Source of the DNA: a virus
DNA length: 64,000 nt
Virus record (IMG/VR): IMGVR_UViG_3300045988_144476
Strand: one strand, 5' to 3'
Of the stretch, positions 1 to 51,506 are shown piece by piece (the first letter of the stretch is position 1; each line of letters starts with the position of its first letter). The notes under the pieces are model-generated. The model saw only the letters and a program-made list of their open reading frames with translations, ran no database searches and was not told where the DNA came from. A program made the position numbers and the translations under genes.

Positions 1-3000
1 AGTTATAGTTCTGTCTGCAAACACTTTTGTAAATGCTGCGTCCCAATGCTTAAATGTAAAATCATTCTCGACTGTACTTGGAATGGTAGGAGTCTTAATT
101 GGATTTGTAGCTCTTGTCAAAGGATCTTCGCCATCGGCACCAATATCTACATACTGAATATCAAGAACTGTGTGTGCCTCATCAGCATTGACACAGGTGA
201 TTTTGTACTGAACAATAAGAGAATCATAAGTAATTTCAAGTCCAGTCCAAATACCTTTATGGGTATCATTTCCAACATATTCCAGAAGTTCCTGGTTACG
301 AATAACAGGTACATGAATAGTTCCGGTAAGAACTGAATGTTCAGTATTGAATTCGTTTTCATCTTTTCCGGTAAGTTTTGATAATACTTTAAGAATATCT
401 GTGTTTTCCAGATTCCAGTTGATTCCTGTTACGGTTACAGTCTTAAGAGATTTAATAGCTTTCTGAATAATGCCTAAAGCATCAACTTTAGAATTTCTAC
501 AAATGAAAGTTTCAAGATTTTCATAAGAAGGAATTACTAAATCAGTAAGATTCTGTAAATCTCTAAATGTAAGAGCATTGATTGTTGCTGGGAGATAAAC
601 ATGTGTAATCTTTCCGTGTGTAGCAAATGATACAGAAGAAATGATTGTTCCTGATGCATTTAATTTCAGAAGATTTTCACATGCAGAAAGATTAATAGAA
701 CCTGTAAGGTTTGGACAATTCTGAACGTCAAGTTCTTCAAGAAGAGTATTGTTACCCATGTTCAGATTTGTTAAGAAGGAGTTTTGATATCCTTCTTTGT
801 TACTGCCAATAATAAGAGTTTTCAATTTAGATGCTTTTGAGAAATCATTATCATGGATATAACAAGCTGATAAATCGTTTAAAGCTTGGATTCTGGACGC
901 ACAGTAGATTAATACTGCGGTATCATCCATGTTTGTGAGAGTAGTAGTGATTTCATATTCCTGTCCAGCTTTAGCACGTACCTGAGTAGGATTTGCTGAG
1001 TTACCATATAATACGGAGATATACATATCAGAATATGGAATAATTCTTAATGTATAATCTGGTTTAACAACAGCCTGTTTAGGAGTATTACATCTGAACA
1101 TAATCTGGTCAGATTTTACATCTGTGTGAACGAATTTGGTTCCCATATAAGCATGTTGATCACGTTCCCACTGTGCAAGATGATATATTCCACGACCATT
1201 CATCATTTCCTGTAAGAATCTTACAGTGCCTGCTCTATAAGTTCTGAAATATAATCTATCATAATGAAGTCTCCAGAGTTCTTCTGGGAATTGATTCTGC
1301 CAAGCCTTATATTCATTAATCAGATGGGTATCAGACCAACAGTTAGCATCTACGGACTGATACATATTTCTTAATTGTGGTTGCATGAGATCACGGATCC
1401 TACACCATAATGTTGATTCAGCAGCATTAAATACATAACCAGAAGAAGGCTTACCATCTTCTTTATAATCAGTATCTTCTTTTCCATATGGAAAAACTAA
1501 TTCACCACTGTTATTAATTCCAAGCTGAGTATCCATATCATATGCCCAGAAATCAAATCTATATCCATTATGAATTGCAGCAGCATTATCATCTATTGTA
1601 TAATACTGGGCTTTATCTCCAGCTTCAGCAGCTTCAGATGTACTCATGTAATGTTTAGCCCAATGAGGAAAAACATTCTTTGCTCGGTTGTCAATCATGC
1701 TATATCTAAGAGTAACTAAATAGAAGTATAATGTTGTTTCTTTGATAACCCAATCTCCTAAATGAGCAACGAAATCTTCGTCAGAAGAAGTAACTATAAA
1801 TTCATAGAAATCACGCCATATCTGACGGTTGTTTGTACGAATCTTTTCCTTCTCTTCATCTGTAGAAATAGCAGAACCATCTTTAGAATCTCCACAACAA
1901 TCGTATCTAAATTCAAATGATCCGTCCCAATTATTGTAAAGATTGTCATAAGCAGTATTTCCTGCTTTCCATTCTGCTTTTGTAATTGGATATTTTGGTG
2001 TTCCGTCTGGATTTGTTACTCCCGTCTGGAATGCAGAGTTTGGAAGAGTATTATCTGAAATCTCAATACAAAATTCCTTCATATCATCTGGATCATAAGC
2101 TCTTGTAACATCTGTCTTTTTGGAATCACCCATATTGCCTAAACTATAGAAATGCCAATCAGTGTCTTGGAATTCTCTATGAGTAGATACGTCTGGATCG
2201 TTCTCTTTAAGGAAGATTACACAGTTTACGAACTCCATAGAGTTCTTTACTTTCGGATCTCTTTTAGTTCCTGGACTTGTATATGGAAGAAAATCATTAA
2301 ATCTCTTTTGTCCTAATGCGTTTGTAGCCATGTTAGAACTTGCTACATTCACCTTGAAATTCCACCAGTTATTAGGCACTGAATTTCTCGTAAGAGATAT
2401 TTTACCTGTTCCATCAGTAGTTTTACTTCCGTCCCCAAGTTCAAGAATCGTTTTATAATTAGGATCTAATTTGATTTTACTATTAACCTGATGTTCACCA
2501 TCAAAACAACAGATAACATCGATATTTCTTGCAGCAAAACCATATTCATTAGATGTTGTACCCTGGCCAGCATGATAGCAATTGGTAAATTTCCAGTTAT
2601 CAAGAACTGGATCACCATTTGTATAAATACACTGCATGGAGGTATTTTTTACGAAGTCCTTCTTATCATTTGTAAAATGAGGAGCTTCAATTTTAATAAT
2701 TCTCAAATCTGGACATGCTTTTGCAACTGACTCTGGAGTAAGTGAATTATTTTCATCATAAATCTGATTACGTTCATATCTTGCAATCATATCATCAGAA
2801 TCTCTGGCATCCGCAATAAAGTTAGAAAGAATATCTGTATCAGTTAAAGCTGCAGAATAGGCTTTCATTCGATAAACATATACATCACAGTCATCAGAAC
2901 CAATAGTAATTGGTACAGGAGAATATTGATATAATCTATGAACATCATTATATATCATAGGTCTGCTACCAACGCCATCTTCATAAGTCATAACAATAGA

Positions 3001-5751
3001 AGTAGCCCCGTCAGTTTTTGTATCCAAGGCATTGATATTAAATTCATATTCAATAATGTCTTCTTCACTGTATGGAAAATACAGACTATCTGTAGAAGAA
3101 TAAATATTTGCTTCATGAACATTCATTTCAAGACCAACTTTATCATCAGTAGTTGGGATACAAGACAAGAAAGTAGCAGAAGCATCACGAACATTTGTAG
3201 TTTTAAATACAATCTTAAATTCAGAACCTGTCTGTTTCGGATCAGTTCCAAAAAGATTATAATTAATAGTAGCAGTTGTTCCGGCTTTTACACAGAAATA
3301 TTGACTTCCATCTGAATCAAGCTGATATCCACCATTAGACCAGTCAAAGTTATCAGATACAGTCATATTTACATTTGTATGTGTCTTATCTGTCCAAAGT
3401 CTATTTTCGTCACTGTTTGAATATCCTGTTGGATTAAAATCAAATTCAAGATTTGCAGTAACTGGCTCAACATCAATATCCAGTTTTTCAATGTTTGCTT
3501 TTAGAATTTTTGTAACCTTTCGACAGGAAATAGTTAAATTATGGTTTCCAATATCAGATGATTTATAACTCCAGGTCTGCGCTGTACGATTAACAGATAA
3601 TGTAGATACAGTATTTCCATCTATGGCTAATTTTACTGTTGCTGGATTATGATCTGGATCATATACAACATAAGGAATATTTGTCGCATGATACTGCTGA
3701 GTTGTAAATTCTTGCATTGAACAACCAATAATAGGAGTTCTGTCATCCGGATTGACCCATATAATATCTTTAATAATTGTCTCTGACTGAATGTCCTGGT
3801 TATTTACAGTAGCAGTCATATATACTTTAAGTAGGTGCGCTCCGTGAGATTGTTTTGTAAGAACATAGGATAACTGTCTACCAGAGGCAGTAGTGTTGAT
3901 TGAATCTAACTCAACGCCATCAAGAATAAAATGTACTGTTTTATTAATATTTCCATAAGGGATATATCTGAATGAGACTTCATCAGAATAGAAGAGTGTA
4001 TCATTAAAAGAACTCTCTAATTTAAAATCGACAATTGTGATTGTCCATGTTTTCGTTGAGAGAGTGCCTACGCTATCAGTGATTGATAATCTAATAGAAT
4101 TTGTACCTGTTTTAAGAAACTCTGTAAGATCAATACTATTTTTACCCTGACCAACTGTAAGAGTAGAAACCGTTGTATTGTCTATTTTCCAAACCGCTGT
4201 ACCAATACCTGTTGAATCACCAACATTATCAACTGATGACCAGGTATATTCAATAACAGATTTATTACCCAATAAGAAAATGGCATCAGCTGGAGTAATA
4301 CGTTCAATTGTCATTGTAGAAGTAGTAGTTCCACCACCGCCTCCACCTTGAATTGTAAATGTTTTAATGGTTTCTCCATTTTCTTTCCAGTAGAAAATAT
4401 TATCAGCATAATCAACATCATATTCAGTGGATGCCGGATTTTCTTCTAATTTTTTAACCCTTCCTTCCAGAGTATCAAAATTCGTTCCTAAACTATCAAC
4501 GGCTTCTTTATTTCCGTCAACAGTCTGTTTCATATTTGCTACTGAGTTAGTAGCTTGCGACACATCTTTTTTAATTTGTGGAATCTCAGTTTTTTTTACT
4601 TCATCCAGAGAAGATGTTAAGTTGGTAATTTTCTGTTCATCCTTGGTCTGCTGCTCTTGAATAGACTGAATACTATTGTTAATAGGAGTAATGTTGGCAG
4701 TTACCCATTCAGTAGAAGGATCAATAGAACCAATATTAACAGAAGTAATAGGTTCTTCAACGCCTTCTTGATAAAAACTTAAAATACCTTTGCCATCAGA
4801 AGTAGTATATTTTGCTCGTAATTTAGATAGACTGTCAATGTCAATTACCGCATGAGCAATTTCCTTTTTGCTATCCTTGTATAATAAGGTAAGTGTCTGA
4901 TTTGCTTTTGTATAAGAAATATCAAGATTTGCCAATCCATCCATATTATCAATGGCATTTTTGAGTAAGGAAATAGAATCATTAATATGTTTTTCTTGTG
5001 TGTCAACTTCCGTTTTAGTATAATAATTTACTAAAGAAGACGTATTATTAATTTCATCTCTAATCTCACTCATGACGGATTCTTTGATGTTGTTTAGTTT
5101 TTCATTAACTTCTGTAGCAGCATTTTTGGCTTTTGTAGCAGCTTGTTTTGCTTCTTCTGTATATCCAACAATCTTCTTTTCAAAAGAAGTCATCCATCCA
5201 GAATCTGAAGGCTCAATTGCTCCATTAATATCAATTCCCTGTAAAATATTAATTTTTCCATTTGGTCTTGTACTCCAAGCATAAACCAAATTACCAATTT
5301 GTCCTGTTGCACGAATTTCAAATATATATTCACCTGGGGTTTTAGTAAGTTTATCATCAATTAGCCATCCAAAACAGATATATTGACTATTTCGTTTTAC
5401 ATTAACTACAGGATATTCCCCAGGATTTCCACCAGTTAATTTATCGCTATAGCGAACACAAAAAGTCATTTCTGATAAATCAATTCCATCGTAAAATCTT
5501 GGAATTCTAAATGGTATGTACTGGCTGTTTGATTCCTGTGTAATGTTAATCTGAGAAGAATCCATTGTGATATTTTTATTATTATCTACAGTAGAATACT
5601 TCTCATCAATATATTGTGAATATTGATCATAACCACTTACAATTTCATAATCATCTCCAGCATATACATCCATATCATCATCAACTGAAGCAAGCGTCAT
5701 TACTTCGGATGATGCAGCCATAGCTTTTCTTTTTACGTCTTTAAATGACAT
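1..5751 (-). CDS. giant tail fibre / adhesin-like virion protein, partial (>=1917 aa, C-terminus beyond the left window edge)
   Basis: The minus-strand frame is open from ATG 5751-5749 (RBS AGGAGGAAGCAA upstream) to base 1, checked codon by codon on many lines. It is absent from the ORF track only because no stop lies in the window. Manual translation shows a coiled-coil N-part, a GGGGGG linker (~4330-4350), Ig-like repeats, a CotH-like stretch (DNRAKNVF..FDFWAYDMDTQLG, ~1500-1720) and leucine-rich repeats (~400-900). It is the last gene of the tail module. Confidence 0.8.
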   Translation of the reverse strand, partial: MSFKDVKRKAMAASSEVMTLASVDDDMDVYAGDDYEIVSGYDQYSQYIDEKYSTVDNNKNITMDSSQINITQESNSQYIPFRIPRFYDGIDLSEMTFCVRYSDKLTGGNPGEYPVVNVKRNSQYICFGWLIDDKLTKTPGEYIFEIRATGQIGNLVYAWSTRPNGKINILQGIDINGAIEPSDSGWMTSFEKKIVGYTEEAKQAATKAKNAATEVNEKLNNIKESVMSEIRDEINNTSSLVNYYTKTEVDTQEKHINDSISLLKNAIDNMDGLANLDISYTKANQTLTLLYKDSKKEIAHAVIDIDSLSKLRAKYTTSDGKGILSFYQEGVEEPITSVNIGSIDPSTEWVTANITPINNSIQSIQEQQTKDEQKITNLTSSLDEVKKTEIPQIKKDVSQATNSVANMKQTVDGNKEAVDSLGTNFDTLEGRVKKLEENPASTEYDVDYADNIFYWKENGETIKTFTIQGGGGGGTTTSTMTIERITPADAIFLLGNKSVIEYTWSSVDNVGDSTGIGTAVWKIDNTTVSTLTVGQGKNSIDLTEFLKTGTNSIRLSITDSVGTLSTKTWTITIVDFKLESSFNDTLFYSDEVSFRYIPYGNINKTVHFILDGVELDSINTTASGRQLSYVLTKQSHGAHLLKVYMTATVNNQDIQSETIIKDIIWVNPDDRTPIIGCSMQEFTTQQYHATNIPYVVYDPDHNPATVKLAIDGNTVSTLSVNRTAQTWSYKSSDIGNHNLTISCRKVTKILKANIEKLDIDVEPVTANLEFDFNPTGYSNSDENRLWTDKTHTNVNMTVSDNFDWSNGGYQLDSDGSQYFCVKAGTTATINYNLFGTDPKQTGSEFKIVFKTTNVRDASATFLSCIPTTDDKVGLEMNVHEANIYSSTDSLYFPYSEEDIIEYEFNINALDTKTDGATSIVMTYEDGVGSRPMIYNDVHRLYQYSPVPITIGSDDCDVYVYRMKAYSAALTDTDILSNFIADARDSDDMIARYERNQIYDENNSLTPESVAKACPDLRIIKIEAPHFTNDKKDFVKNTSMQCIYTNGDPVLDNWKFTNCYHAGQGTTSNEYGFAARNIDVICCFDGEHQVNSKIKLDPNYKTILELGDGSKTTDGTGKISLTRNSVPNNWWNFKVNVASSNMATNALGQKRFNDFLPYTSPGTKRDPKVKNSMEFVNCVIFLKENDPDVSTHREFQDTDWHFYSLGNMGDSKKTDVTRAYDPDDMKEFCIEISDNTLPNSAFQTGVTNPDGTPKYPITKAEWKAGNTAYDNLYNNWDGSFEFRYDCCGDSKDGSAISTDEEKEKIRTNNRQIWRDFYEFIVTSSDEDFVAHLGDWVIKETTLYFYLVTLRYSMIDNRAKNVFPHWAKHYMSTSEAAEAGDKAQYYTIDDNAAAIHNGYRFDFWAYDMDTQLGINNSGELVFPYGKEDTDYKEDGKPSSGYVFNAAESTLWCRIRDLMQPQLRNMYQSVDANCWSDTHLINEYKAWQNQFPEELWRLHYDRLYFRTYRAGTVRFLQEMMNGRGIYHLAQWERDQHAYMGTKFVHTDVKSDQIMFRCNTPKQAVVKPDYTLRIIPYSDMYISVLYGNSANPTQVRAKAGQEYEITTTLTNMDDTAVLIYCASRIQALNDLSACYIHDNDFSKASKLKTLIIGSNKEGYQNSFLTNLNMGNNTLLEELDVQNCPNLTGSINLSACENLLKLNASGTIISSVSFATHGKITHVYLPATINALTFRDLQNLTDLVIPSYENLETFICRNSKVDALGIIQKAIKSLKTVTVTGINWNLENTDILKVLSKLTGKDENEFNTEHSVLTGTIHVPVIRNQELLEYVGNDTHKGIWTGLEITYDSLIVQYKITCVNADEAHTVLDIQYVDIGADGEDPLTRATNPIKTPTIPSTVENDFTFKHWDAAFTKVFADRTIT

Positions 5752-20436: not shown

Positions 20437-21024
20437 ATGGCTTTAATAAAATGTCCTGAATGTGGTAAGGAAGTTTCCAATAAAGCTCCAGCGTGCATAC
20501 ATTGTGGTTTCCCATTGAGTGAACTCAAAAAAGAAGGCACTTGTAAAATAAATGATCAAGAAGTTGATCTGATAAGGATCAAAAAATTATATGATTCATT
20601 ACCAGATGAATGTAAAAAAATTATATATAAAAGTTGTCGAACAAACGCAACAAAAACAGAAAAATATATTTGTTCATGTTCTCCGGATACATATACTGTA
20701 GAAGAAAGTAATAAAATTTATGATATTTATATGGATATGATATTTCCAATCCAAAAACAATTTAATTGGTTTGGTGCTAATGAGTATTTAGTTCACAGAT
20801 TCCTTGTAGAATGCATCGATCACAACTTTGAATACTTTGAGTTCAATACCTCAGATTATCCTTCTCCCGGATCTCAAAATCAACTTCGTTGTCCAAAATG
20901 TGGTTCAACTTCAATCGTTCCAGAAAAAAGAGGATACGATATTATGTGGGGATTTTTAGGATCTGAGAGAATCGTATATAATGTATGTCAGAAGTGTGGA
21001 CATAAGTGGAAGCCTGGAAAATAA
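20437..21024 (+). CDS. double zinc-ribbon protein (195 aa)
   Basis: N-terminal CPECG..CIHCG and C-terminal CPKCG..CQKCG ribbons, with a good RBS. Confidence 0.75.
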
Positions 21025-21277
21025 GGAGCAGTTACTTAATTGTTTTGTCAATCATATGTATAACGCATTTTTGGAATGCCAGAATCATTCAAACGAGAAT
21101 TAATAATTTGCTGTAATTTTTCTTGCTCTTTTTCAAATTGCCACCAGTAGATTACTTTTAGTATATTTTGATGTTTTGGTGTGGGTATAAGGTATAACAT
21201 GTTGATCAGCTCACTTTCAAGAGGGAATAATGAATATAAGAAAAATAAAGAAAACGATATATATACAACCGATATAA

Positions 21278-21442
21278 TTATTCACTTATGTCATGTTTTT
21301 GGTCTTGACAATCTGTATCTGATGAAGTGACCGGTATAAAACATTGAGTGAATATATATTTACAAAGTTCTTCTGTGTTTGTTTCAGTTATAGGCATACT
21401 GTCTGAATAAATGGTAGACACTTGTTCTGATTGTGTATTCAA
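21278..21442 (-). CDS. possible small ORF (54 aa, TTG start)
   Basis: GAGGTGA lies 5 nt before the TTG. Found by hand because it is below the ORF-track size cut-off. An in-frame ATG is at 21397. Confidence 0.3.
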   Translation of the reverse strand: MNTQSEQVSTIYSDSMPITETNTEELCKYIFTQCFIPVTSSDTDCQDQKHDISE

Positions 21443-21504
21443 TTAAATCACCTCGATTCTAATAAAAGTGTGGTTATAAGTGGTGGCTGGGGAGATAAAT
21501 AATT

Positions 21505-22320
21505 ATGTATATTGATACCTATGATACTAATAACGAAGATGAAAGATTTAAAAAATATGTAGAAATTCTTAAATCCCATGATCAGCTAAAAAAATCATTA
21601 TGGAATAAGCTTAATACTCCAGAAGTGTTAAAATTAGAAGAAGAATCAGATACTCTTTTTAAAGAATATATGAAACTAGATAGAAAACTTCAAAGAGAGG
21701 TTGCGTTTTATAATAGTTATTTGAAATCTGATTCTGATTGTATAGATTATTGCGATGTAAAATTTCATGAAGATCTAGATTTTAATCTTCCTGAAGAAAT
21801 TCAAGAGTTGGCTAATACATTTCATAAGAAAGATAAAGAATATAGTTGTGCTTGTAATGCCCACAAAGAAGCATTATGTAAAAATTTTGTAAAGCTAATA
21901 TCAGATATTACTCCTGAAAATTGTTTTAGAGATAATTCATTTGGAAGTACTCGTGATGTCTTCTCAGATTTTTATAATTCATGCAAACCATTCATGATCC
22001 TTAACATGGGGTTATACGAGCTTATTATAGTTCAAGATATTTTTACAGATAAGTATCATCATACAAATTATTCTATTACTATGTATGAATTGAAAAACAT
22101 GTCAAACTTTGATGTAAAAGTAAGATGTGAAAAGTTCTTCGATCAATTTAATAAAGAATTAGAACCATATCGACAAAACTTACGTTCTAACTTCGAACAT
22201 AAAACTCCTGTTCTGACACCTTTTAAAGATGCATATACTCTTTTTGCTCAGACCAGATCAGAAGAATATGGCAGAACTAGACAATATCTGATTATTGGAT
22301 GTGTGGTGTATCAAAAATAG
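21505..22320 (+). CDS. hypothetical protein (271 aa)
   Basis: ATG with GGGGAGA RBS. No recognisable motif. Confidence 0.7.
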   Translation: MYIDTYDTNNEDERFKKYVEILKSHDQLKKSLWNKLNTPEVLKLEEESDTLFKEYMKLDRKLQREVAFYNSYLKSDSDCIDYCDVKFHEDLDFNLPEEIQELANTFHKKDKEYSCACNAHKEALCKNFVKLISDITPENCFRDNSFGSTRDVFSDFYNSCKPFMILNMGLYELIIVQDIFTDKYHHTNYSITMYELKNMSNFDVKVRCEKFFDQFNKELEPYRQNLRSNFEHKTPVLTPFKDAYTLFAQTRSEEYGRTRQYLIIGCVVYQK

Positions 22321-22365
22321 CAGAAAATACGTTCTGATTTACATATTATATGAAAATGGTATAAT
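22321..22365 (+). promoter_or_regulatory. conserved box plus sigma-70-like promoter (cassette 1)
   Basis: CAGAAAATACGTTCTGATTTACA contains the inverted repeat CAGAA-N6-TTCTG. Promoter is TTTACA-16 nt-TATAAT. A near-identical copy is at 23073. Confidence 0.6.
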
Positions 22366-22555
22366 TTACCATGTAGATGGTGAGTGTACGCACCGCCCAC
22401 CTGTGCGTATCTACAAGCAACCCGTTAACCTATACACCATGAGAAAGTAGAGGTGTATGCTTATTTCCAGGAGTCTACATGATTCTGGTAGTCGTATCAA
22501 GTTCATCTTAGCTTCCAAACAAATAGTGAATCCGTCACTAGATTGGAGGTGAAAG

Positions 22556-22738
22556 ATGAATAATAATGATCGACTATTTAAGCTTGCAAGTTTAACACTT
22601 TTCTTGGTAGTTATAGTAGCTATAGTTTGGATAATTCTAGACCATAATCCAATCGTTTTAAAGGCAACTATTAACATATTGAAATTTTCTGCTGAGATTA
22701 GTTGCGAGTTTGCAAGCGTTGCATCAGGCTGCAATTAA
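22556..22738 (+). CDS. small single-pass membrane protein (60 aa)
   Basis: RBS GGAGGTG. One transmembrane segment (LASLTLFLVVIVAIVWIIL). Preceded by a ~190-nt structured leader. Confidence 0.6.
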   Translation: MNNNDRLFKLASLTLFLVVIVAIVWIILDHNPIVLKATINILKFSAEISCEFASVASGCN

Positions 22739-22920
22739 GTTGACCGTGGGTCGTTTATAGCCTGAGAATCAGAGGGTAATTCCTTTGATGTAAAACGGTG
22801 CCTTTTGCTCCAACAAGAGGTACCGTTATCAATAGAAATACCATGACATTTTACAATATCAGATTTTATTATTTGAGATTTCTCTTTGCTTATAAACAGC
22901 GAATCTAATTTATTATTCAT
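22735..22920 (-). CDS. possible small ORF (61 aa) convergent with the membrane-protein gene
   Basis: AAGGAA RBS. Its 3' end overlaps the plus-strand ORF by 4 nt. It could instead mark an antisense RNA. Confidence 0.3.
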   Translation of the reverse strand: MNNKLDSLFISKEKSQIIKSDIVKCHGISIDNGTSCWSKRHRFTSKELPSDSQAINDPRST

Positions 22921-23072
22921 AATAGTTCCTTTTATCCATTTTATTATATATTTGAAAATAAAGCTCCTGGATATTCCAAGAGCTTTGTTATCGGCAATCG
23001 TTCACGATTATTTTTTAAACAGGGGAGTGCCCGGATCAGCCGATATGATTCCCTCAGCATGTGAGCCTGTTA

Positions 23073-23118
23073 CAGAAAATATGTTCTGATTTACAAAAAT
23101 ACCAAATATTGGTAATAT
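23073..23118 (+). promoter_or_regulatory. conserved box plus sigma-70-like promoter (cassette 2)
   Basis: CAGAAAATATGTTCTGATTTACA matches the 22321 box at 22 of 23 positions. Promoter is TTTACA-17 nt-TAATAT. Confidence 0.6.
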
Positions 23119-23308
23119 ACCAATAGGTATTTTGTGGTTGTAGATGATGCATTACAACACGATTGCACGGCAAATACCTGATTTATTCTTTAATAAATCA
23201 TGCATAAGCAAAGCTATACAATCTTGTATACGCAATGCGAAAAGAGAATTCTGCCCGTTCTGGGCGAAACTTCCCAAATAAGAAATTTTTATTAGGGGAG
23301 GAGGTGAA

Positions 23309-23494
23309 ATGAATATGATTGAATTGTTTAGTATTTTTGGAGGTCTTCTAGTAATTATAATCTTAGCTCATATGTATTATAGTTCAAAGAAACACACCAT
23401 TGATCAGATTTGTAATCATCCAGAATTATCTGATGAGAAAGTTGAATCGATCACTAAAATGATGAAAAGACAGTACAAAGATCGTATCAAATAA
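23309..23494 (+). CDS. small single-pass membrane protein (61 aa)
   Basis: RBS GGGGAGGAGGTG. N-terminal transmembrane segment (IELFSIFGGLLVIIILAHMYY) and a charged C-terminus. Preceded by a ~190-nt structured leader. Confidence 0.65.
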   Translation: MNMIELFSIFGGLLVIIILAHMYYSSKKHTIDQICNHPELSDEKVESITKMMKRQYKDRIK

Positions 23495-23569
23495 TTCTAA
23501 TGTCATTTCCCAATTATGAATTCTCCTTTAGATTTAAAGTTTTAATAGATTTTTAGAAATGTTTACGAA

Positions 23570-23598
23570 AGAGGCCGGGAGTATTCTCGGTCTTTTTT
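23570..23598 (+). terminator. rho-independent terminator (usable in both directions)
   Basis: AGGCCGGGAG-TATT-CTCGGTCT hairpin followed by TTTTT on the plus strand. An A-run precedes it, so a weaker minus-strand version also exists. Confidence 0.65.
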
Positions 23599-23985
23599 CT
23601 CTTCATTCACAGTAGAAGAGTAGTACTGAGTGGATTTCACCACCGTTACAGTGGTACATGCATTAAAAGCATATGTCTTTCCGAACTTAACATATACTCC
23701 GAGGAAGGGTGCACTCTCTACACTTCCTGATTATTCATATGCTTCCATCACCATAACTTTCGTTATTGCTTCTAGTGTATCACATATTACTAAACGTAAA
23801 TCAGGTTGGCACATGCGTCACTCTGCGAACTTGCGTTCACTTCACTGCATAAGCAGAATAACAGGCTTCGATGTTTTATTCCTCTATTTATTTATAGCCG
23901 CTAGTCTCCACACATTGATTATTAATCTCTATGTAGATAGGCTCATTATCAAAATCGGAAAAATAAATGTAACCCTGAGTTTGGG
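23599..23985 (-). ncRNA. candidate structured RNA / long structured 3' UTR downstream of TMP-A
   Basis: No credible ORF and visibly higher GC than the surroundings. On the minus strand it has GNRA-capped hairpins GAAC-GCAA-GTTC (23827-23838) and TAAC-GAAA-GTTA (23754-23765), plus AGGAAG/CTTCCT (23703-23728). Confidence 0.4.
23936..23969 (+). repeat. right arm of the island-flanking inverted repeat
   Basis: The plus strand reads ATAGGCTCATTATCAAAATCGGAAAAATAAATG. It shares a 12/12 core AAAATCGGAAAA plus TCATTA and TAAA..TG flanks with the minus strand at 20350-20386. Confidence 0.7.
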
Positions 23986-26900
23986 TCAACCTACGGCTGT
24001 TTTAAAACCACCACCAATTAAGAAATCTAATCCTTTTTTACCTGCATTCTTTACAGTCATTGCTGAGAAAATTGCAGTGATTAGAGCTGGTATTGGTCCT
24101 AAAGTTTTCTCTAATCCGGTAAATCCTTCTGTTAATCCATGTACAAAATCAAGTGCTCCACCTACTTGATCTGAATTATAGAAGTTTAACCAGAATTCGT
24201 CCATTTGAGTTTTAATGGCCTGGACTTTGCCATTGAAAGATTCCATGTATTTCTCTTGGTTTGCTTCAGCGTTACCTTGAGCATTTGTAGCTTCTTCAGC
24301 TAAAGACATGGAGTCTGTGAATGCGTCCAATATGTTCTTGAACTTGGATGTTTGTCTTGTCGCTGCGACATCAAATGCGATTTTTGCTTGCTGTGCATCA
24401 GTCAAATCATTCCATTTGGATTTCAGTTCGGATAATACCGTAACAATTCCACGGTCTGATCCATCTGGATTATAGACATCAACACCTATAGAATGCAGAG
24501 AAGCAGAAGCATTTGATAATGTTGCATTATCAACCTCATCTGCGTATTGTGGCATTTTACCGACTTTTGTGGTTCTGGTAATAATTGTCTTTAAAGCATT
24601 ACCAATTGAACTTCCATCTTCACGAGTTCTTTCAGCTACTTTTGCAGAAATAGCAGCTAATTGTTCATATGACATTCCGGCATCATAAGCAACCTGACCT
24701 GAAGCCTGTACAGCATCAGACATTACCTTAATACCTTTGGCATAATCCATACCCACGTTCGATGATATTTTATCCATTACATCTACTACATGCATAGAAG
24801 CATCAGCAGCAGAAGTAGATCCGTCTTCTAACATATGGAACTGCTGTAAAATACCCTGTACCTGGTCAGCAGCAGTAGAAGCATCAACACCACTTAAGTT
24901 ACTCAGAATAGCAGTCGGTTTAGCAGTTTCCTGAATTTCTTTTGAAGTAGTATTCATATTTGCATAGATCTGATAAATATCCATTGTATTATCAAGAGAC
25001 ATTGACAGATCTTTTGCCATATCAACAGCAGAAGTACCTAAATCAGATAATTGCTGTTTATTCATATCCATGGTATAACTGATAGTAGTTAAAGCCTTAT
25101 CATAATCCATGAATGTATTGAATCCTTCACGCATTTGTTGCCATGCCTGTTGCATAATTTGGATACTACCAACAGCATTTGCGACATCACCAAGAGCGGA
25201 AGTAAAGTTACCTTTTACAAGTCCTTTCAGACTATCTGAAAGAGATGTAAAACCAGATGTTCCGGATTTATTTGTATATTTCTCCATTGTACGGAGACTG
25301 TCATTTGCTTTTTCTATATTACCTGTAAGAGTAACAAGATTACCTGAAACATCTTTAAAAACTAATGATATAGAACCGGTACTTTTATTTATACTAGTTG
25401 AAACTTCATTAGTAAGACCAAGTTGAGATGCATAATTTCTTAGAGCAGAAGTAGCATCATCAATATCTTTTATGGTACCAAGAGTACCTTCTTGTAAAAT
25501 ACCTTTTCCATTTTTTCTATCATATCCAGAAGCAGTTTTTTGGAAATTTTCAATATCAGAAATGATATTATTAACAGAATCATGAAAATTATTTTCGTCA
25601 ATTTCTTTATTATTAAGTGAATCAACTAATTGATTGTATCGTGTTCTAAATTCAGTGATCTTATCTTTGTAGGCATCAATTTTATTTCCAGAATTTGCAA
25701 ATTTATTTAATTTATTTATTTGTTCTGCGAAATTAAGCTCGTCATTACCTGTCACAGTATTTTCATAATAATTCTTTAGATCTGTAAATTTTTCGGTCTG
25801 TTCTTGTATTTTATCAACATAATCTAAAATACCATTAGCATTTTTATTTTGATTAAATGCACTTTCAGCATCTTTAGTAGATGTTTTTATACTTTCTAAA
25901 TCAGCTTTTAAACGATCGGTTATACGACCTGCACTTTCAAGTTTGGTGAGATAACTATCGACTTGATTTAAGAATGACTTAGAATTATTTGAAATTAACT
26001 GATCTTGAGTAGCATTGGCTCTATTACGAATATCAAATATTGCATTTTCAGCAACTTCTTTCCCAAATATGCTATTTACTTGTGCACGAAGACTTTGATA
26101 TGCATTAGTATAATTTTCACCTAAAATCTTTCCGGCAGTAATATCGGCTCCATCTTTAGTAGCAAGACCAAGAAGTTTGTTTTCGTTATTTCTTTTGTTT
26201 GAATATGCCTTCTTCATCAATTCAATGATATTATTGTTTTTACCATCAAAATTAGAATAATCAGACATATCATCAAAAGCCTTTTGATATGAATCAAATT
26301 TCTTTTGATCTAAAATTCTGTCGGGATTTGATTTATTATTATCGTATACTGTATTATAAAAATCCCCAACTTCTTTTCGTAAAGATTTAATTTTATCTAC
26401 TTGAGCATTTACTTTTTCAATGTATTCATCTTTACCATATTTGCCAGAAGCTCCATTTGCCTGGATATTATATAAATCAACATATGCTTGTTTTAATTCT
26501 TTAACTTTAGCAATAGCAGAGTCATATGTTTGATTATAATCATCTATATTTTTCTGTGTATTTTCTTTCTGAAAAGCACTATATGCACCTTGTTCAGCTT
26601 CACCTAATTTACTTTTTTGGGTGTTATAAGCATTTACACGATCTTTTCCTAATACATCAGAATGCTGTTCAATAAATTTATCGGCATCCTCAATATTCTT
26701 TTGTTTATTATCAATTTCTTTGCGTAAATTGTTAATTAATTCATTAGAAGCACCTTTAGATTTAGCAGAAGATAATTCTTTATTTTTCTTCTCTAGTTTA
26801 GAAAGACCATTCATTAAATCGGTGTATTCAGAAATAATTTGATCTGAAATACGATTTCCCGCACGTTCGTTCATATCAATCCGATGTTGTTCAATTCCTT

Positions 26901-46634: not shown

Positions 46635-46709
46635 TAGATGTAGTAGGACTCGAACCTACAAAACTCTGATCCTAAGTCAGATGCGTCTGCCAAATTGCGC
46701 CATACATCC
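46635..46709 (-). tRNA. tRNA-Leu(TAG)-like: tRNA with anticodon UAG (Leu CUA/CUG decoder by anticodon) but a class-I short variable loop
   Basis: Acceptor GGATGTA/TACATCT, A73, anticodon arm TCTGA-CTTAGGA-TCAGA, 5-nt variable loop, T arm GTAGG-TTCGAGT-CCTAC. No encoded CCA. Confidence 0.75.
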
Positions 46710-46715
46710 AAAGAA

Positions 46716-46733
46716 GGGCAGTAAAGACTGCCC
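46716..46733 (-). terminator. terminator-like hairpin between the phosphoesterase gene and the tRNA
   Basis: GGGCAG-TCTTTA-CTGCCC followed by TTCTTTGG on the minus strand. Confidence 0.55.
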
Positions 46734-46777
46734 TGTATAGAAGTGTATAATATAAGCAGCAACGCCACTCGTATTAT

Positions 46778-47959
46778 TTAATGTAATTTATATTTATGTT
46801 CATCTACAAGTCCATCTAACTGGTCAAACACAAACATAGAAGCACCTGCGTTTGCAGTTTTATTGATAGACATACTATATGGATTCACTCCAATAATTGA
46901 TCGAACACTAATTACTTCAGAATTTCGTGCAACTTCTTCAGAAAAAGAAGAATGCCAGTGTCCTGTAAATAAATAGTCGATAGGCACTTCATGGATCTTC
47001 ATAATATCTTTCATTGTCTTATTCAGATCTTTTGTTTCAAAATGTCCACCTAAACATGTATAAATAGTTAACTGTGAATATGCTAATCCAGTAGGATTTT
47101 CAACAATTTTTACATTTGGATTATCTTTTAATCTGGCTTTCATCAAAGCTAACATAGATTTACTCATATCTTCATTATCAAAAGCATTTTTAGGTTGTCC
47201 TAATAATCGCAATTGATTATGATTTGATTTTTTAACCATTTGAAAAGTAATAAAAACATGTTTACTTAATTCATTCAGCCATTCAGATAAAAAGTTTGCA
47301 TATAAAATAGAAGAATCAATAACTCCATATTTTAACTGCATAAGCTGAGAATTAGCTCTTAATAAACCATCAAGAGCATCTCCTAAATCCCAAATATGTA
47401 AATGTGTAATTCCGTCTTTATTGATCTGATCAACAACTTTATAATATAATTCCCACATTCTATGTTCAAAAATTTCAGGACTATATTCATTAATGGTATA
47501 TCCATGAAGATCTTTTATATTAAATTCAACTCCGTAATGAGCATCAGAAATAGTAAGAAGATAAGCTTTTGTAGTTGGTTTTAAAATGATCGGTTCAGGC
47601 TTCTCTAATGGTTCAAGACATTTTACAGCTTCGCCAATTTTTTCAGCAATTAATTCATCTCGTGAATACTCACGTAACCATTTATTAAACTCAAGTTTTT
47701 CAGTTTGAAGTTTAATTCGTTCTTTTTTAATTGCAAGTTCTTCCGGTATATTAGAAATAGAAGAGGATGGAGTAATATTCCATCCTGCATCTATATACTC
47801 TAATAATAATTTTGATCCTTTTCGAATTGTATCACGATGTTCAATTTCTCCTAAAGCATCAGATCTAAAATCTGTTACATCTTGCCATTCGATAGATGAA
47901 TCAGTTTGCTTTCGTTTAATCAGATCAAGCTGTTCTTTTAAAAATTGATCTTTATCCAT
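46778..47959 (-). CDS. calcineurin-like metallophosphoesterase (393 aa)
   Basis: Motifs ISDAHYG, DLGDALDG and GHWHS in the canonical order. Confidence 0.65.
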   Translation of the reverse strand: MDKDQFLKEQLDLIKRKQTDSSIEWQDVTDFRSDALGEIEHRDTIRKGSKLLLEYIDAGWNITPSSSISNIPEELAIKKERIKLQTEKLEFNKWLREYSRDELIAEKIGEAVKCLEPLEKPEPIILKPTTKAYLLTISDAHYGVEFNIKDLHGYTINEYSPEIFEHRMWELYYKVVDQINKDGITHLHIWDLGDALDGLLRANSQLMQLKYGVIDSSILYANFLSEWLNELSKHVFITFQMVKKSNHNQLRLLGQPKNAFDNEDMSKSMLALMKARLKDNPNVKIVENPTGLAYSQLTIYTCLGGHFETKDLNKTMKDIMKIHEVPIDYLFTGHWHSSFSEEVARNSEVISVRSIIGVNPYSMSINKTANAGASMFVFDQLDGLVDEHKYKLH

Positions 47960-47968
47960 AAATTTACC

Positions 47969-48184
47969 TTACATATTATCTGTTGCGGATCCAGAAATGT
48001 CATCAAGATCAATTTTCTCTTCAGTTTTAGTAGTAGTAGAAAGGTCAAAAGGAATATCTCCGTATGCCTTTTCAAAAACTTCAAGAATGTCAATAATTTC
48101 GCCATTCATATCAACAAGTCTTCCATCTACCATATGTAAACTTTTTATTTTTCCATCATATTTTACAGTCTTTTTTAATTCCAT
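47969..48184 (-). CDS. hypothetical protein (71 aa)
   Basis: ATG start with AAGGAGAAAA RBS. Confidence 0.6.
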   Translation of the reverse strand: MELKKTVKYDGKIKSLHMVDGRLVDMNGEIIDILEVFEKAYGDIPFDLSTTTKTEEKIDLDDISGSATDNM

Positions 48185-48205
48185 AATTTTTCTCCTTGTA
48201 TTCCA

Positions 48206-48234
48206 TTGACATATATCAATGTTTGATATATAAT
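48206..48234 (+). promoter_or_regulatory. perfect consensus sigma-70 promoter pointing antisense into clpP
   Basis: TTGACA-17 nt-TATAAT (12/12 consensus positions). The -35 sits in the palindrome CATTGA-N6-TCAATG. Confidence 0.45.
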
Positions 48235-48264
48235 GTTATTTGTGAAAGATTAAATAAAATTCAA

Positions 48265-48870
48265 TTATAATAAAGAATCTAATTCAATATCTTGTCCAAT
48301 AATACCGTCTACAATACCACGTTCTTTTGCCTCTTCAGCAAACATATAATATTCACGGTCTTTAATTTCTTCAAGAAATTCTGCAGACATATTACTATGT
48401 TCAATCATAAAATCAGTCATTCTTTTTTCAAGATTATCATAAAATTTCTGAATATCTTTTCCTTTATTTGACGAACTTACATATCCAGTCTGTCCATCAT
48501 GATACAATACAATAGTATTTGGGAAACAATATCTTTTATGTCCTGCGGCAAGAATATAGGATCCCATAGAAGCACATTTTGCAAATCCAATTGTAATTAC
48601 AGGAGTAGTAGATGTAGAAATTGAACTTAATACTTGTGATCCAGAAATAACATCTCCACCATCTGAATTAATATAAATATAAATTGGTTTTCTACAACCT
48701 TTTGGAAGACCCTTATCTTCTTTGTTCCACTGCATAATCATTAAACAAATATTTTCAATAATATTGTCATCGATATCTTCATTAAGAATAATTTTTCTTT
48801 GATTTAGATGTTCTTTTACAATTGTAGTATAAATTTCATCATCATCTTTTAATGTTAATAATTCCATCAT
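48265..48870 (-). CDS. clpP: ClpP-family serine protease
   Basis: INSDGGDV, catalytic-Ser context FAKCASMGS, and His context IVLYHDGQ. Confidence 0.8.
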   Translation of the reverse strand: MMELLTLKDDDEIYTTIVKEHLNQRKIILNEDIDDNIIENICLMIMQWNKEDKGLPKGCRKPIYIYINSDGGDVISGSQVLSSISTSTTPVITIGFAKCASMGSYILAAGHKRYCFPNTIVLYHDGQTGYVSSSNKGKDIQKFYDNLEKRMTDFMIEHSNMSAEFLEEIKDREYYMFAEEAKERGIVDGIIGQDIELDSLL

Positions 48871-48890
48871 ATATAATCCCTTTATTCCTT

Positions 48891-50336
48891 TTATAATGTA
48901 ATAACCATATCCTTTACAGAAGCAACAACTTTAAATGTTTTATCTTCATTAGATATAGCTGTTTTTAAATCTTGTTTTAAACTATTTTTAGCAACTTCTG
49001 AACCGTGAACTAAAACTAATTTTTCAGTATTTACTTTAGATCCATATGTGATAAGTTCATTTCTGTTAGCATGACTTGAAAATGTTCCAAGAGATATACA
49101 ATCCGCTTTATTTTCAACTCCATCACCACTAATTTTTATTATCTTATTTTCCTTATAGTTTTTAATTCTATATGAAAGATAGGAATTATCAGCTCCGGTA
49201 TATCCGCTAAAAATAACCATACTGTTTTCATCATTTAAGTATTCATGCAAATAAGATAAAATACGTCCATTTGTACAAAAACCTGAACTGCTTAAAACAA
49301 TTTTAGGTCTATGATCTTTAACAATAGCTAAAGAGTCTTCTTTTTCACGAATAAAATGAACTTTATCCCAACTAGATATTTTTCCCCATAACTCCAAATC
49401 ATTATCTGGTAGAAGAGTAGAATATAGATCACAAATATCACATGATAAGATAGAATCAACAATAATGTCATATTGAAAATTCTGATCATGATAAATACTA
49501 TATAGATTTGTCAATATTTCTTGCGTTCTACTAAAACTAAAGCATGGCATAATAACGGATCCACCACGTTCAGTTACTGTGTCAATAGCAGCTTTCAAAT
49601 GATCCAGGTCAAATTTACGTGTTTTCTTATTAATTCGTCCTGGTTCACCATAAGTAGACTCCATAATAGTAATTTTATTAAAATCTGTTGGAATTTCAGT
49701 ATTAGGAACATAATGATTCTTTGTATTCAAAGAACCAATATCAGAAGTGTATAAAATAGATTTTGGGATTCCGTTTTGATCCCGAAGTGTAAGTTGGAGC
49801 TGCCTAGCACCAACGCAATGACTATTTTCATACCATTTAAACGAAACGACATCATCCAAAACATATTGCGTATGAATTTCATCATATTCAACAATATATT
49901 TCAAGGTATCAGTAACATCTGTTTCATCATAGATAGGAGAATAGTTTCTTTTATATTTAAATGATAAAGCATTTGCTTCACTGAGTAAAATAAAAGCACA
50001 ATTATAAAGCAGCGGTTTCATAAGTTGTGCAGTAGCATGTGAAGCAATAATTTTTCCTGTAAATCCTTCTTTTACCAGTCTTGGAAGTAATCCAATATGA
50101 TCAACATGAGTATGTCCAATAAAAACATAATCAATTTCAGAAGGTTTAAATTGAAATTTTGCTGAATTTATATTATATGACTCAAGATAATTATTATTTT
50201 GATATAAACCGCATTCTAATAATATTTTTTTGCCGTTGTATTTAATATAAATACAGCTGCCGGTAACATCATTGGCATTTTGACCTATTAAATAAATGCC
50301 TTCATCTTTTTTCTTTTTAGCTATGTCAAACACCAA
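48891..50336 (-). CDS. metallo-beta-lactamase / beta-CASP family nuclease (RNase J / CPSF-like)
   Basis: HxHxDH motif (IGHTHVDHIG), ESTYG, and the C-terminal SSHAN motif. TTG/GTG start with a weak RBS. Confidence 0.8.
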   Translation of the reverse strand: MVFDIAKKKKDEGIYLIGQNANDVTGSCIYIKYNGKKILLECGLYQNNNYLESYNINSAKFQFKPSEIDYVFIGHTHVDHIGLLPRLVKEGFTGKIIASHATAQLMKPLLYNCAFILLSEANALSFKYKRNYSPIYDETDVTDTLKYIVEYDEIHTQYVLDDVVSFKWYENSHCVGARQLQLTLRDQNGIPKSILYTSDIGSLNTKNHYVPNTEIPTDFNKITIMESTYGEPGRINKKTRKFDLDHLKAAIDTVTERGGSVIMPCFSFSRTQEILTNLYSIYHDQNFQYDIIVDSILSCDICDLYSTLLPDNDLELWGKISSWDKVHFIREKEDSLAIVKDHRPKIVLSSSGFCTNGRILSYLHEYLNDENSMVIFSGYTGADNSYLSYRIKNYKENKIIKISGDGVENKADCISLGTFSSHANRNELITYGSKVNTEKLVLVHGSEVAKNSLKQDLKTAISNEDKTFKVVASVKDMVITL

Positions 50337-50355
50337 CTTTCAGTATATATTAGTA

Positions 50356-50568
50356 TTAGAAATTAAAATTTTTCTTATTTTTATCAATATATAAATCGGT
50401 CTGGTGAACTGATTTTCTATATTCATTCAAAATTTCAACAGTTTTATATCTGGTTGTCATATAATATCTTTTTGCACGACCTTTATGTGTCTTACTAATC
50501 GTATGAACATCAAAACCTCTTCCTTTTGAACGTAAGTATTCAGCTTCTTTTTGACTAATATTTATCAA
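50356..50568 (-). CDS. hypothetical basic protein (70 aa)
   Basis: TTG start 7 nt after GAGGAAA. Confidence 0.55.
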   Translation of the reverse strand: MINISQKEAEYLRSKGRGFDVHTISKTHKGRAKRYYMTTRYKTVEILNEYRKSVHQTDLYIDKNKKNFNF

Positions 50569-50748
50569 TTATTTTTCCTCGCTTAAAATAGATTTCTCCA
50601 ATAGGAGATTTTGTGTAGACTCAAAGGCTCATTATCTGTCATGATCAGAGACAAAACCTTTTGTAAACCCAATCTGACGCAAGCATCCTCATGGTAAAAC
50701 TATATCTACGATGTTTTATTGGAATTTTGATTTAATTTGTCAACCTCA

Positions 50749-50830
50749 TGGGAGAGGTAGGACTCGAACCTACGATGTTTCTTTGTGGCTGATTTACAGT
50801 CAGCTGCCTTCGCCGCTAGACTACTCTCCC
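50749..50830 (-). tRNA. tRNA-Tyr(GTA): tRNA-Tyr (GTA)
   Basis: Acceptor GGGAGAG/CTCTCCC, anticodon arm GCTGA-CTGTAAA-TCAGC, long variable arm, T arm GTAGG-TTCGAGT-CCTAC. Confidence 0.85.
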
Positions 50831-51147
50831 TTGTGTTAAGTGAACAGCTATTCTTATTAAATATATAACCATAAATGGAGGCCATATATTTTATTGGAAA
50901 CTTAACTTTCCCATATGATTTATGGTTAAATCACAAAAACTTGACTGCGTTTCGTCCTAAGTCAAACTCCCGCCAGATTTTCACGCTACTAGATATCTGG
51001 AACTTATCTTTTAATTCATCAAGAATACAGATTTGCGCCTGTCATTCTAAGATATAGTCTGTGTACTTTAGACTGCCATTTACTTCACTTCCTAAATGGT
51101 CAAAACGTAATCTGGGGCTAGAGGAGCTACCTCCGCATTTCAGATAA

Positions 51148-51219: not shown

Positions 51220-51227
51220 AAATAAAA

Positions 51228-51300: not shown

Positions 51301-51302
51301 AA

Positions 51303-51485: not shown

Positions 51486-51506
51486 AATAATTCCTATATG
51501 GGATAA

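Follow-up and report, generated by a model that had tools for sequence, protein, structure and literature searches.

Background

Small membrane proteins that are under SOS control and are translated from gated leaders are known mainly from Escherichia coli chromosomes (tisB, dinQ). The promoters of tisB/istR-1 and dinQ/agrB carry a LexA box, their 5' untranslated regions (UTRs) are long and structured, the products span the membrane once, and alternative pairings control the access of ribosomes; the SOS-regulated dinQ is first transcribed into a translationally inert RNA, and its translation is gated by structures that exclude one another (PMC3567139, PMC5066626). The same logic seems to be packaged in mobile cassettes of abundant human-gut phages, with a LexA box of the Gram-positive type. 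Here, we report a computational analysis of two such units at positions 22,321 to 23,598 of a 64,000-nucleotide stretch of viral DNA (IMG/VR record IMGVR_UViG_3300045988_144476; hereafter, the window), each composed of a 23-nt box, a promoter, a long leader and a gene for a small membrane protein. We read them as two independent LexA-repressed moron cassettes in which the leader gates translation of the membrane protein, and assign this reading a probability of about 0.5.

E. coli tisB and dinQ are the closest functional analogues of the phage units, with which they share the arrangement of promoter box, long structured 5' UTR and product with a single transmembrane (TM) helix, as well as, by prediction in the phage units, control of ribosome access by alternative pairings. 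The phage units differ in showing no sequence homology to these systems, in the Gram-positive type of their LexA box and in their location in a moron island; a gene for an antitoxin small RNA (sRNA) was not found in them, and ORF61, the product of the second unit, has a conserved, predicted cytoplasmic domain and is not a minimal pore-forming helix.

Type I toxin-antitoxin (TA) loci of Firmicutes prophages, such as CD0977.1/RCd11 of Clostridioides difficile and bsrG/SR4 and yonT/SR6 of SPbeta, are alike in prophage location and in having a small product with a hydrophobic N-terminus, and unit 1, like them, has a convergent partner (PMC7699646). However, this partner is a protein gene that is separable from ORF60, the product of unit 1; there is no homology, ORF60 lacks a lysine-rich tail, and the phage leader is far longer and is conserved as a fold.

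Phage morons of the HK97 gp15 and lambda bor/lom type are likewise autonomous units of promoter, open reading frame (ORF) and terminator that are variably present among tail genes. The window units depart from these in having an elaborate leader behind a repressor-type operator, features that point to conditional rather than constitutive expression in the lysogen. Small single-pass membrane proteins that are induced by the SOS response and inhibit division include YneA of Bacillus subtilis, SosA of Staphylococcus aureus and SidA of Caulobacter; SfiC of e14 is a further case. The phage proteins resemble this group in size, in the single membrane span and in their putative LexA/SOS control, but are not homologous to any of its members, and ORF61, whose tail is predicted to be cytoplasmic, would be inserted in the opposite orientation to YneA and SosA.

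Two separate cassettes that share a box

The features of the two units are the following.

22321-22343: unit 1 box, CAGAAAATACGTTCTGATTTACA
22321-22336: unit 1 palindrome, CAGAAAATACGTTCTG, with the core GAAA-ATAC-GTTC at 22323-22334, centred at about -43
22338-22365, plus strand: unit 1 promoter, TTTACA, 16-nt spacer, extended -10 TGgTATAAT
22372-22555, plus strand: leader 1, about 184 nt
22556-22738, plus strand: ORF60, a single-pass membrane protein of 60 amino acids, behind a strong Shine-Dalgarno (SD) sequence
22735-22920, minus strand: convergent gene for a soluble, basic protein of 61 amino acids, overlapping the ORF60 stop codon by 4 nt
22960-22986: inter-unit hairpin, AAAGCTCCTGG-ATATT-CCAAGAGCTTT, followed by a U-run on the minus strand
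23073-23095: unit 2 box, CAGAAAATATGTTCTGATTTACA
23073-23088: unit 2 palindrome, CAGAAAATATGTTCTG, with the core GAAA-ATAT-GTTC at 23075-23086
23090-23118, plus strand: unit 2 promoter, TTTACA, 17-nt spacer, extended -10 TGgTAATAT
23125-23308, plus strand: leader 2, about 184 nt in the window, member of an RNA family of about 195 nt
23309-23494, plus strand: ORF61, a single-pass membrane protein of 61 amino acids
23567-23598, plus strand: intrinsic terminator of unit 2, a 14-pair stem with a T-run, at the right edge of the island

A first-pass annotation of the window, made from the sequence alone, had described the units as paralogous copies of a duplicated cassette. This description does not survive comparison, given that the leaders and the ORFs show no detectable homology and that each unit occurs alone in relatives. 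Global and local alignments of the two leaders score no better than shuffled sequences (z = -0.26 and 0.15, respectively), and BLASTP of ORF60 against ORF61 gives no alignment at E <= 100. A covariance model of leader 2 scores 9.3 bits on leader 1 (E = 0.71) and returns the same weak, full-length alignment when only the leader 1 stretch is searched; by alignment scores and covariance model alike, homology between the leaders is unproven. What the units have in common is confined to the operator/promoter module, GGAGGTGAAA and the motif TGTAGATGRTG, the last of which had already been noted as shared by the leaders and is indeed present in both.

Among 30 human-gut metagenome loci obtained by exact-protein look-ups, unit 1 is found without unit 2 in L004, L005, L009, L010 and L021-28, and unit 2 without unit 1 in L011-13, L015, L016 and L020. 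The flanking sequences diverge 1-3 nt upstream of the box, and the box can therefore be taken, on this sequence comparison, as the left boundary of the cassette. The near-identity of the boxes, which differ at one base, is best explained by recombination between cassettes at the box, because the homology of unit 2 with relatives of about 74% identity starts at 23081, within the box, and because in L038 unit 2 is preceded by the unit-1 version of the box. The locus shows a short operator/promoter box serving as a junction for the swapping of moron cassettes. Each unit has its own promoter and terminator, lies between late genes and varies in presence among relatives, and the comparison identifies the units as independent moron cassettes that move separately between related phages. 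An equivalent of the unit 2 terminator is present in L029 and in diverged relatives. The inter-unit hairpin is kept in the loci that have the unit 1-unit 2 junction and resembles a terminator for transcripts antisense to unit 2.

Unit 1 was also found on an 82-kb scaffold (L007, 1-2000) beside genes for a holin and for a protein similar to the C-terminal portion of the tail protein, together with a bacterial-type glgB gene; we suggest that it sits there in an integrated prophage or a prophage remnant. In IMG/VR, three motif scans for unit 1 returned nothing real, the 23 matches to a 16-mer all being due to chance.

A LexA-like operator in front of both promoters

The 23-nt box has just two matches in the 64 kb at up to three mismatches, where none is expected (100 shuffles). 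Both boxes, at 22321 and 23073, contain the palindrome CAGAA-N6-TTCTG, as the first-pass annotation had it, and the palindrome ends 1 nt from the -35 element TTTACA; the annotation's view of the box as an operator fused to a promoter is likewise supported, in that the box is operator-like by sequence. Both promoters read as near-consensus promoters of the host sigma-A (sigma-70) type. That of unit 1 matches the consensus at 11 of 12 positions, with TG ahead of the -10 element, and the predicted transcription starts are at about 22371-22373 (unit 1) and 23125 (unit 2). All unit-1 variants retain the palindrome, including the 80%-identical L029.

Diverged relatives of unit 2, drawn from IMG/VR and metagenomes, provide a phylogenetic footprint. 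In their promoters, only the -35 and -10 elements and a palindrome 3-4 nt before the -35 element persist, and the pattern RAAM-N4-GTTY is kept across 7 promoter versions of unit-2 relatives, of which three stand in unrelated contexts. The versions read as follows.

Window units 1 and 2: GAAA-ATAY-GTTC
L032, L063 and others (about 74% nucleotide identity): AAAC-TAAT-GTTC
L068, L093: GAAC-TCAY-GTTC, a perfect match to GAAC-N4-GTTC
L077: AAAC-ATAG-GTTC
L080: AAAC-ATAT-GTTT
L085: AAAC-CTAT-GTTC
L087: AAAC-TTAT-GTTC

This footprint favours a conserved host factor as the binding protein, because the box is kept in L080, L085 and L087, which have nothing else in common with the window (tblastx), and because L087 retains it despite a short, unrelated leader.

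The Gram-positive SOS box is GAAC-N4-GTTC, and the core SOS genes of C. difficile carry GAAC-N4-GTTT; operators of this species that are stably bound by LexA in surface plasmon resonance (SPR) include AAACACCCGTTCTG and AAACATTCGTTCTG (PMC4234289). Both window boxes agree with GAAC-N4-GTTC at seven of the eight core bases. Compared with the Clostridial operators (GAAC-N4-GTTT/C), core and flanks are alike except for one core mismatch (GAAA-N4-GTTC in the window), and AAAC-N4-GTTCTG has exactly the form of the stably bound CDR20291_2056 operators. With a LexA matrix built from the published C. difficile operators, the boxes score 9.7-14.7, where all but one of the training sites score 10-17; among 63,985 window positions, the unit 2 box ranks 5th and the unit 1 box 14th. 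The placement is also that of an operator: the palindrome ends 1-4 nt before the -35 element in 8 promoter versions that do not align at their other bases, where a bound protein would occlude the promoter, and is conserved in orthologous promoters. Taken as a resemblance of motifs, the palindrome is a probable LexA (SOS) operator of the Firmicutes/Clostridia type.

It is conceivable, though rather unlikely, that the palindrome instead serves a phage repressor or another host regulator, for example, a Crp/Fnr-type activator at -42. A 5-6-5 palindrome centred near -43 occupies the classical position of a class II activator, GAAA replaces GAAC in both window boxes, and the clues to the host conflict. 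Against such a regulator, near-consensus promoters with an extended -10 element need no activator, and the motif, which resembles Clostridial sites that LexA binds, persists in unrelated genomic backgrounds, whereas phage repressor specificities usually diverge between phages. Moreover, there are two sites only in the 64 kb, and those window ORFs that were scanned include no gene for a repressor of the helix-turn-helix (HTH) or S24 kind.

Two further LexA-like sites, 22174-22189 and 22200-22215, have the top matrix scores in the window and lie in the 3' end of a 271-aa ORF, 120-150 bp upstream of the unit 1 box; we rejected them, as they are mutated in the close variants L005, L006 and L010 and absent from the 272-aa allele of the ORF. 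A search of GTDB genomes for the box gave one true match, which lies on a contig of 8 kb binned with Melainabacteria; four other matches were due to chance. In L035 (5732-5754) and L039 (6136-6158), two related metagenome-assembled genomes (MAGs) with 46-50% G+C, the sequence AGAAAATACGTTCTG-TATTTACA occupies what looks like the promoter of rpsO, the gene for ribosomal protein S15; we took the match as chance, yet the resemblance runs through the -35 element.

Leader 2 is a conserved pseudoknotted RNA

Sequence comparison identifies leader 2 as an evolutionarily conserved, pseudoknotted RNA. The leader folds better than its dinucleotide shuffles (z = -2.55). A covariance model (R1) finds window positions 23125-23321 at 203.8 bits together with 17 further loci, and about six lineages, down to about 40% protein identity, share the architecture along the whole leader, between the predicted start of transcription and the initiation codon. 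The elements of the fold are listed with their window positions.

23125-32/23172-79: P1, the 5'-terminal helix
23137-42/23153-58: P2 hairpin, with G-C/A-U and U-A/U-G exchanges and the conserved loop GRUGMUGCAU
23147-23152, plus strand: 5' strand of the pseudoknot, AUGCAU, the final six bases of the P2 loop
23180-87/23192-99: H3, with five different stem sequences
23200-23205, plus strand: 3' strand of the pseudoknot, about 50 nt downstream, with the sequence AUGCAU in the window and either AUGCAG or AUACGG in relatives
23215-20/23225-30: H4, with two unrelated stem types
23253-23265, plus strand: H5 hairpin, GCCC-GUUCU-GGGC, nearly invariant in all clades
23270-75/23295-300: H6, CTTCCC with GGGGAG, enclosing a nested A/U hairpin

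The family has five covarying or invariant helices plus the 6-bp pseudoknot. When 17 distinct sequences are aligned by fitting them to model R1, 88.9% of the cells are paired, as compared to 40-46% when the partners are slid, and the covariation score is 0.173, as compared to 0.04-0.08; neither observed value is reached in any of 500 shuffles. For the pseudoknot, 95.8% of the cells are paired (again 0 of 500 shuffles), and three of the six pairs are changed on both sides: at the 5'-most pair, most lineages have C-G, the window A-U and L077 U-G, and in two inner pairs of L077, U-A stands for C-G and C-G for U-A. The pairs of H5 are never lost and its loop RUUCU is conserved, H5 being a candidate recognition site; the single-stranded motif AUGCAGAAG is conserved as well.

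H6 lies directly before the SD sequence and appears in relatives as CUUCCY with RGGRAG, including a C-G to U-A exchange. In unit 2, its coverage of the purine tract is limited to the 5' half, and the SD core has an alternative pairing partner in ACCU, the 3' arm of P1. In relatives of the unit 2 ORF in L033 (1477-1743) and L034 (324-590), unrelated sequence stands in place of the entire leader ahead of the SD sequence, which results in an 88-aa gene call; recombination close upstream of the anti-SD partner can therefore remove the leader.

Leader 1 folds better still against dinucleotide shuffles (minimum free energy (MFE), z = -3.97). It has a 5'-terminal hairpin at 22373-22414 and further hairpins at 22431-22459 and 22467-22488, and its 5' domain contains interleaved alternative helices, GGTGAGTG/CGCCCACC (in RNA, GGUGAGUG/CGCCCACC) and TACGCAC/GTGCGTA. 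The anti-SD sequence CTTCCAA (22512-22518) pairs with TTGGAGG (22543-22549) and masks the GGAGG core. The 80%-identical L029 has the same helices (z = -3.5), its anti-SD being CCUC in a shifted register, and one-sided changes in L021 and L029 strengthen the GGTGAGTG helix. Leader 1 is known in three sequence versions only, and the conservation of its structure is suggestive.

The helices that had been picked out by eye are present in both leaders: GTAGAT 22373/ATCTAC 22409-22414 and ATACACC/GGTGTAT (22432/22452) in leader 1, and GGTATTT 23126/AAATACC 23172-23178 and GTTGTA/TACAAC in leader 2. That the pairing would prove conserved in homologues holds for leader 2, by covariation, and partly for leader 1, where the three versions include L029 with its helices kept. 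Only leader 2 combines a conserved fold and compensatory changes with an expression platform. A link to a described RNA family did not emerge, as both leaders score below every Rfam gathering score and the matches at E <= 10 are chance matches far under threshold. Upstream ORFs of 31 aa at 22457 and 23200 were rejected as coding, with SD sequences missing or badly spaced; frame and length are lost in L029 and in the unit-2 relatives L032 and L080.

Leader 2 has a multi-helix fold and a pseudoknot, the single-stranded motifs GCACGR and AUGCAGAAG, which do not vary, and a GC hairpin closed by a pentaloop (GCCC-GUUCU-GGGC) that hardly varies; the helix overlapping its SD sequence could act as expression platform. 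This leader, and perhaps leader 1 as well, might be a riboregulator that senses a ligand or protein, that is, a new riboswitch class or the site of a phage RNA-binding protein, instead of a processing or standby gate; the absence of the family from Rfam fits this notion. We consider it unlikely, given that the RNA family is narrow and phage-confined, that the product of the gene is a tiny membrane protein, which nothing in metabolism links to a ligand, no candidate ligand being inferable, and that L087 manages without the leader.

Two small membrane proteins

As anticipated, each unit encodes a small single-pass membrane protein behind a strong ribosome-binding site, with one strong hydrophobic segment in ORF60 and in ORF61. 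Together with the convergent gene, the substitution patterns mark all three small ORFs as encoding proteins under purifying selection. Searches of Pfam, PHROGs, NCBIfam and PADLOC gave nothing usable for ORF60, ORF61, the minus-strand ORF or the 271-aa ORF.

The TM segment of ORF60 spans residues 10-28 (Kyte-Doolittle (KD) value 3.04), and its C-terminal 30 residues, neutral to acidic, probably face outward. Its dN/dS is 0.13-0.49, and the family comprises 5 clusters among 5.8 billion proteins; contigs of 214-314 kb are among its carriers.

The TM segment of ORF61 spans residues 4-22 (KD 2.26). Alignment with relatives and 59-aa gene calls point to ATG 23315 as the probable conserved start, yielding a protein of 59 aa. 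Its dN/dS is 0.22-0.29, with dS above 1. A profile search detected 38 representative proteins at E < 1e-3, mostly of 54-68 aa, in which the N-terminal TM helix is variable and the tail is conserved (...H(T/A)(I/V)D-x-IC-x-HPELSD-x-KV-x-x-I...; in the window, ...H-T-I-D-Q-I-C-N-HPELSDEKV...). In the AlphaFold model (pLDDT 82.8), a loop at HPELSD joins a long helix to a second one; the model had no match in BFVD at E <= 0.001 (Foldseek). By the positive-inside rule, the tail is predicted to be cytoplasmic. Because the tail is conserved more than the TM segment, ORF61 is suggested to act via a specific partner, away from generic membrane damage or a simple pore. The analysis thus defines an RNA of about 195 nt, with its pseudoknot, and a family of membrane proteins of 55-65 aa (TM helix plus HPELSD) under its proposed control; RNA and protein families are absent from Rfam, Pfam, PHROGs and NCBIfam.

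The convergent partner of unit 1 is a protein gene

The layout of unit 1, with a minus-strand ORF at 22735-22920 converging on ORF60, had been likened to prophage type I TA loci such as those of SPbeta, with the minus-strand element as antisense RNA. The convergent ORF is there, its entire coding sequence constituting the 3' region of ORF60, but it is a protein gene. Of 10 pairwise comparisons, with dS reaching 0.7, 8 give a dN/dS of 0.09-0.33, and the other two (0.54 and 1.23) both involve the truncated copy in L020; the ORF is open in every variant that has it (10 homologue clusters). With purifying selection on an ORF that stays open, the element is not merely an antisense RNA, and a dedicated one is not supported. 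The two genes are also inherited apart: L029 and L030 have ORF60 plus about 55 nt of its 3' region without the minus-strand gene, and L012, L013 and L020 have kept the minus-strand gene with ORF60 deleted. In L012 (4200-4300) and L020 (2960-3065), a decayed unit 1 was seen beside the intact minus-strand gene; box and promoter are replaced, and a leader hairpin is fused to the last ORF60 codons to give an ORF of 9 codons.

The idea of a type I TA locus, in which hydrophobic toxins would be made from mRNAs neutralised by cis-encoded antisense RNA, in unit 1 by the 22735-22920 transcript, draws on the small size of the products (60 aa and 59-61 aa, each with a TM segment), the +3 charge of the ORF61 tail, the long structured leaders with an occluded SD sequence in unit 1, and the convergence of ORF60 and minus-strand transcription with no intrinsic terminator seen between them. 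Convergent layouts are also found in the prophage type I TA loci of C. difficile (PMC7699646). We nevertheless regard this idea as improbable: apart from the protein-coding nature and separate inheritance of the convergent element, a conserved antisense partner is lacking both in unit 2 and in its relatives, among which the flanks differ; there is no homology to toxin families (Fst/Ldr, TxpA/BsrG, Hok, TisB and others); and the ORF60 tail is not basic, while in ORF61 it is the tail and not the TM segment that is most conserved. By sequence, neither unit has a conserved antisense promoter, and a promoter-like site on the minus strand at 22589 is lost in L029. A divergent istR-like sRNA gene upstream of unit 2 was considered and rejected, the upstream sequence varying between loci. 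The SPbeta likeness is not borne out by any DNA or protein-family match to SPbeta or to any deposited phage. Since ORF60 and the minus-strand gene converge without an intrinsic terminator between them, their mRNAs could pair, which would be a side effect of the layout without a dedicated antitoxin. The other possibility raised at first, a riboregulated pair of holin- or exclusion-like genes, comes closer with respect to regulation and kind of gene, except that the two genes are independent and do not form a pair.

Least probable of all is that the units are constitutive morons for lysogenic conversion or superinfection exclusion, with the box as a promoter-upstream element or recombination boundary and leaders that stabilise the mRNA: they do adjoin the tape-measure gene within a variable island, are each equipped with a promoter and a terminator, start at a box that is a cassette boundary and begin each transcript with a 5'-terminal hairpin, a kind of structure that stabilises mRNAs in Firmicutes, but the palindrome keeps a fixed distance from the -35 element across otherwise unalignable promoters, and the pseudoknot and SD-overlapping helix go far beyond what stabilisation needs.

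A proposed model of expression under LexA and the leaders

For the preferred reading of LexA-repressed, leader-gated cassettes, we propose the following sequence of events. Host LexA would sit on the palindrome and occlude the -35 element, such that the cassettes would be silent in the undamaged lysogen; after DNA damage or prophage induction, host RNA polymerase would transcribe them. Translation would then be gated, in unit 1 by pairing of CUUCCAA with the SD core, and in unit 2 by pairing of CUUCCC with the 5' purine tract and, alternatively, of the P1 segment ACCU with the SD core. Refolding, 5' processing or a bound factor would decide whether ribosomes load. Both proteins would act at the membrane, ORF61 through its cytoplasmic HPELSD helix-loop-helix. 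If the link to LexA is true, DNA-damaging drugs would turn on phage membrane effectors in gut Firmicutes.

Several observations weigh against this model. In both window boxes, one core base differs from GAAC-N4-GTTC, and the window shows no excess of sites that match the core with up to one mismatch (16, as compared to 16.8 expected). The box is absent from L084, and L111, L112 and L116 carry a GTTC to ATTC change in it, so the operator is dispensable. The sole genome-bin assignment is the 8-kb contig in a Melainabacteria MAG, and cyanobacterial LexA boxes are different. With respect to the leaders, the covariation comes from about six independent lineages in a test alignment that was fitted to the model, and H6 of unit 2 merely abuts the GGAGG core, leaving occlusion of the SD sequence partial.

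More speculatively, leader 2 may represent a new phage-confined class of pseudoknotted switches, riboswitches or protein-responsive ones, which, combined with the LexA operator, would form a two-key gate (damage plus a second signal) over a new family of HPELSD effectors, with leader 1 as an analogous element that evolved independently; we hold this elaboration to be rather unlikely.

The phage genome and the variable island

The window comes from a large phage genome of about 32% G+C, in which the minus strand holds nearly all genes. Features around the two units and elsewhere in the window are as follows.

20437-23600, plus strand: variable island, between the gene for a 2658-aa tail protein and the tape-measure gene
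Beyond the right border of the island: tape-measure gene, 1929 aa, with a PhageMin_Tail domain
23970-23988, minus strand: terminator-like hairpin immediately after the tape-measure stop codon
54310-57174, minus strand: gene for a 954-aa protein without a Pfam domain

The island is hypervariable and is the sole plus-strand island of its region; the hairpin at 23970-23988 would keep read-through of the late operon out of it. Megablast and blastn found no DNA-level relatives among deposited phages, all matches being remote and at the protein level. The terminase resembles proteins of Bacillus and Clostridioides phages. Clues to the host conflict, in that the protein relatives are from phages of Clostridia and Bacilli and one contig is binned with Melainabacteria; the source is a large gut phage, probably with a Clostridial host.

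The 954-aa protein is 24-43% identical to proteins from uncultured human-faecal phages and about 26% identical to proteins of Enterocloster bolteae phages, one of which is annotated as an RNA-dependent RNA polymerase; from these matches, it is probably a YonO-like two-barrel RNA polymerase, YonO being the enzyme that the first-pass annotation had mentioned for SPbeta. Ten tRNA genes form a cluster, with a gene for a Thg1-like tRNA-His guanylyltransferase nearby (46635-53294 and 59661-60494, both on the minus strand). Beside the cluster, 48891-50336 on the minus strand encodes an RNase J- or CPSF-type ribonuclease (a beta-CASP/metallo-beta-lactamase/RMMBL protein), which could be relevant to 5' processing of the structured leaders.

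The first 5.7 kb of the window (1-5700) wholly contain six ORFs of at least 60 aa, none with a Pfam domain, and positions 286-1830 of this ORF-poor stretch are 73% identical to the L038 contig; numerous very small genes, or else non-coding elements, may lie in this stretch.

A non-coding block of about 385 nt (23600-23985), kept at 86-100% in all related loci, separates the unit 2 terminator from the stop codon of the tape-measure gene and makes up the right border of the variable island. Its fold z-score is only -1.8 (minus strand), and 23500-24100 has no Rfam match. A perfect GAACTTGCGTTC at 23827 was considered as a LexA site and rejected, because L029 has AGGCTTGCGCCT there; the change from GAAC-TTGC-GTTC to AGGC-TTGC-GCCT fully compensates a hairpin stem, and for this reason the block may be a structured RNA.

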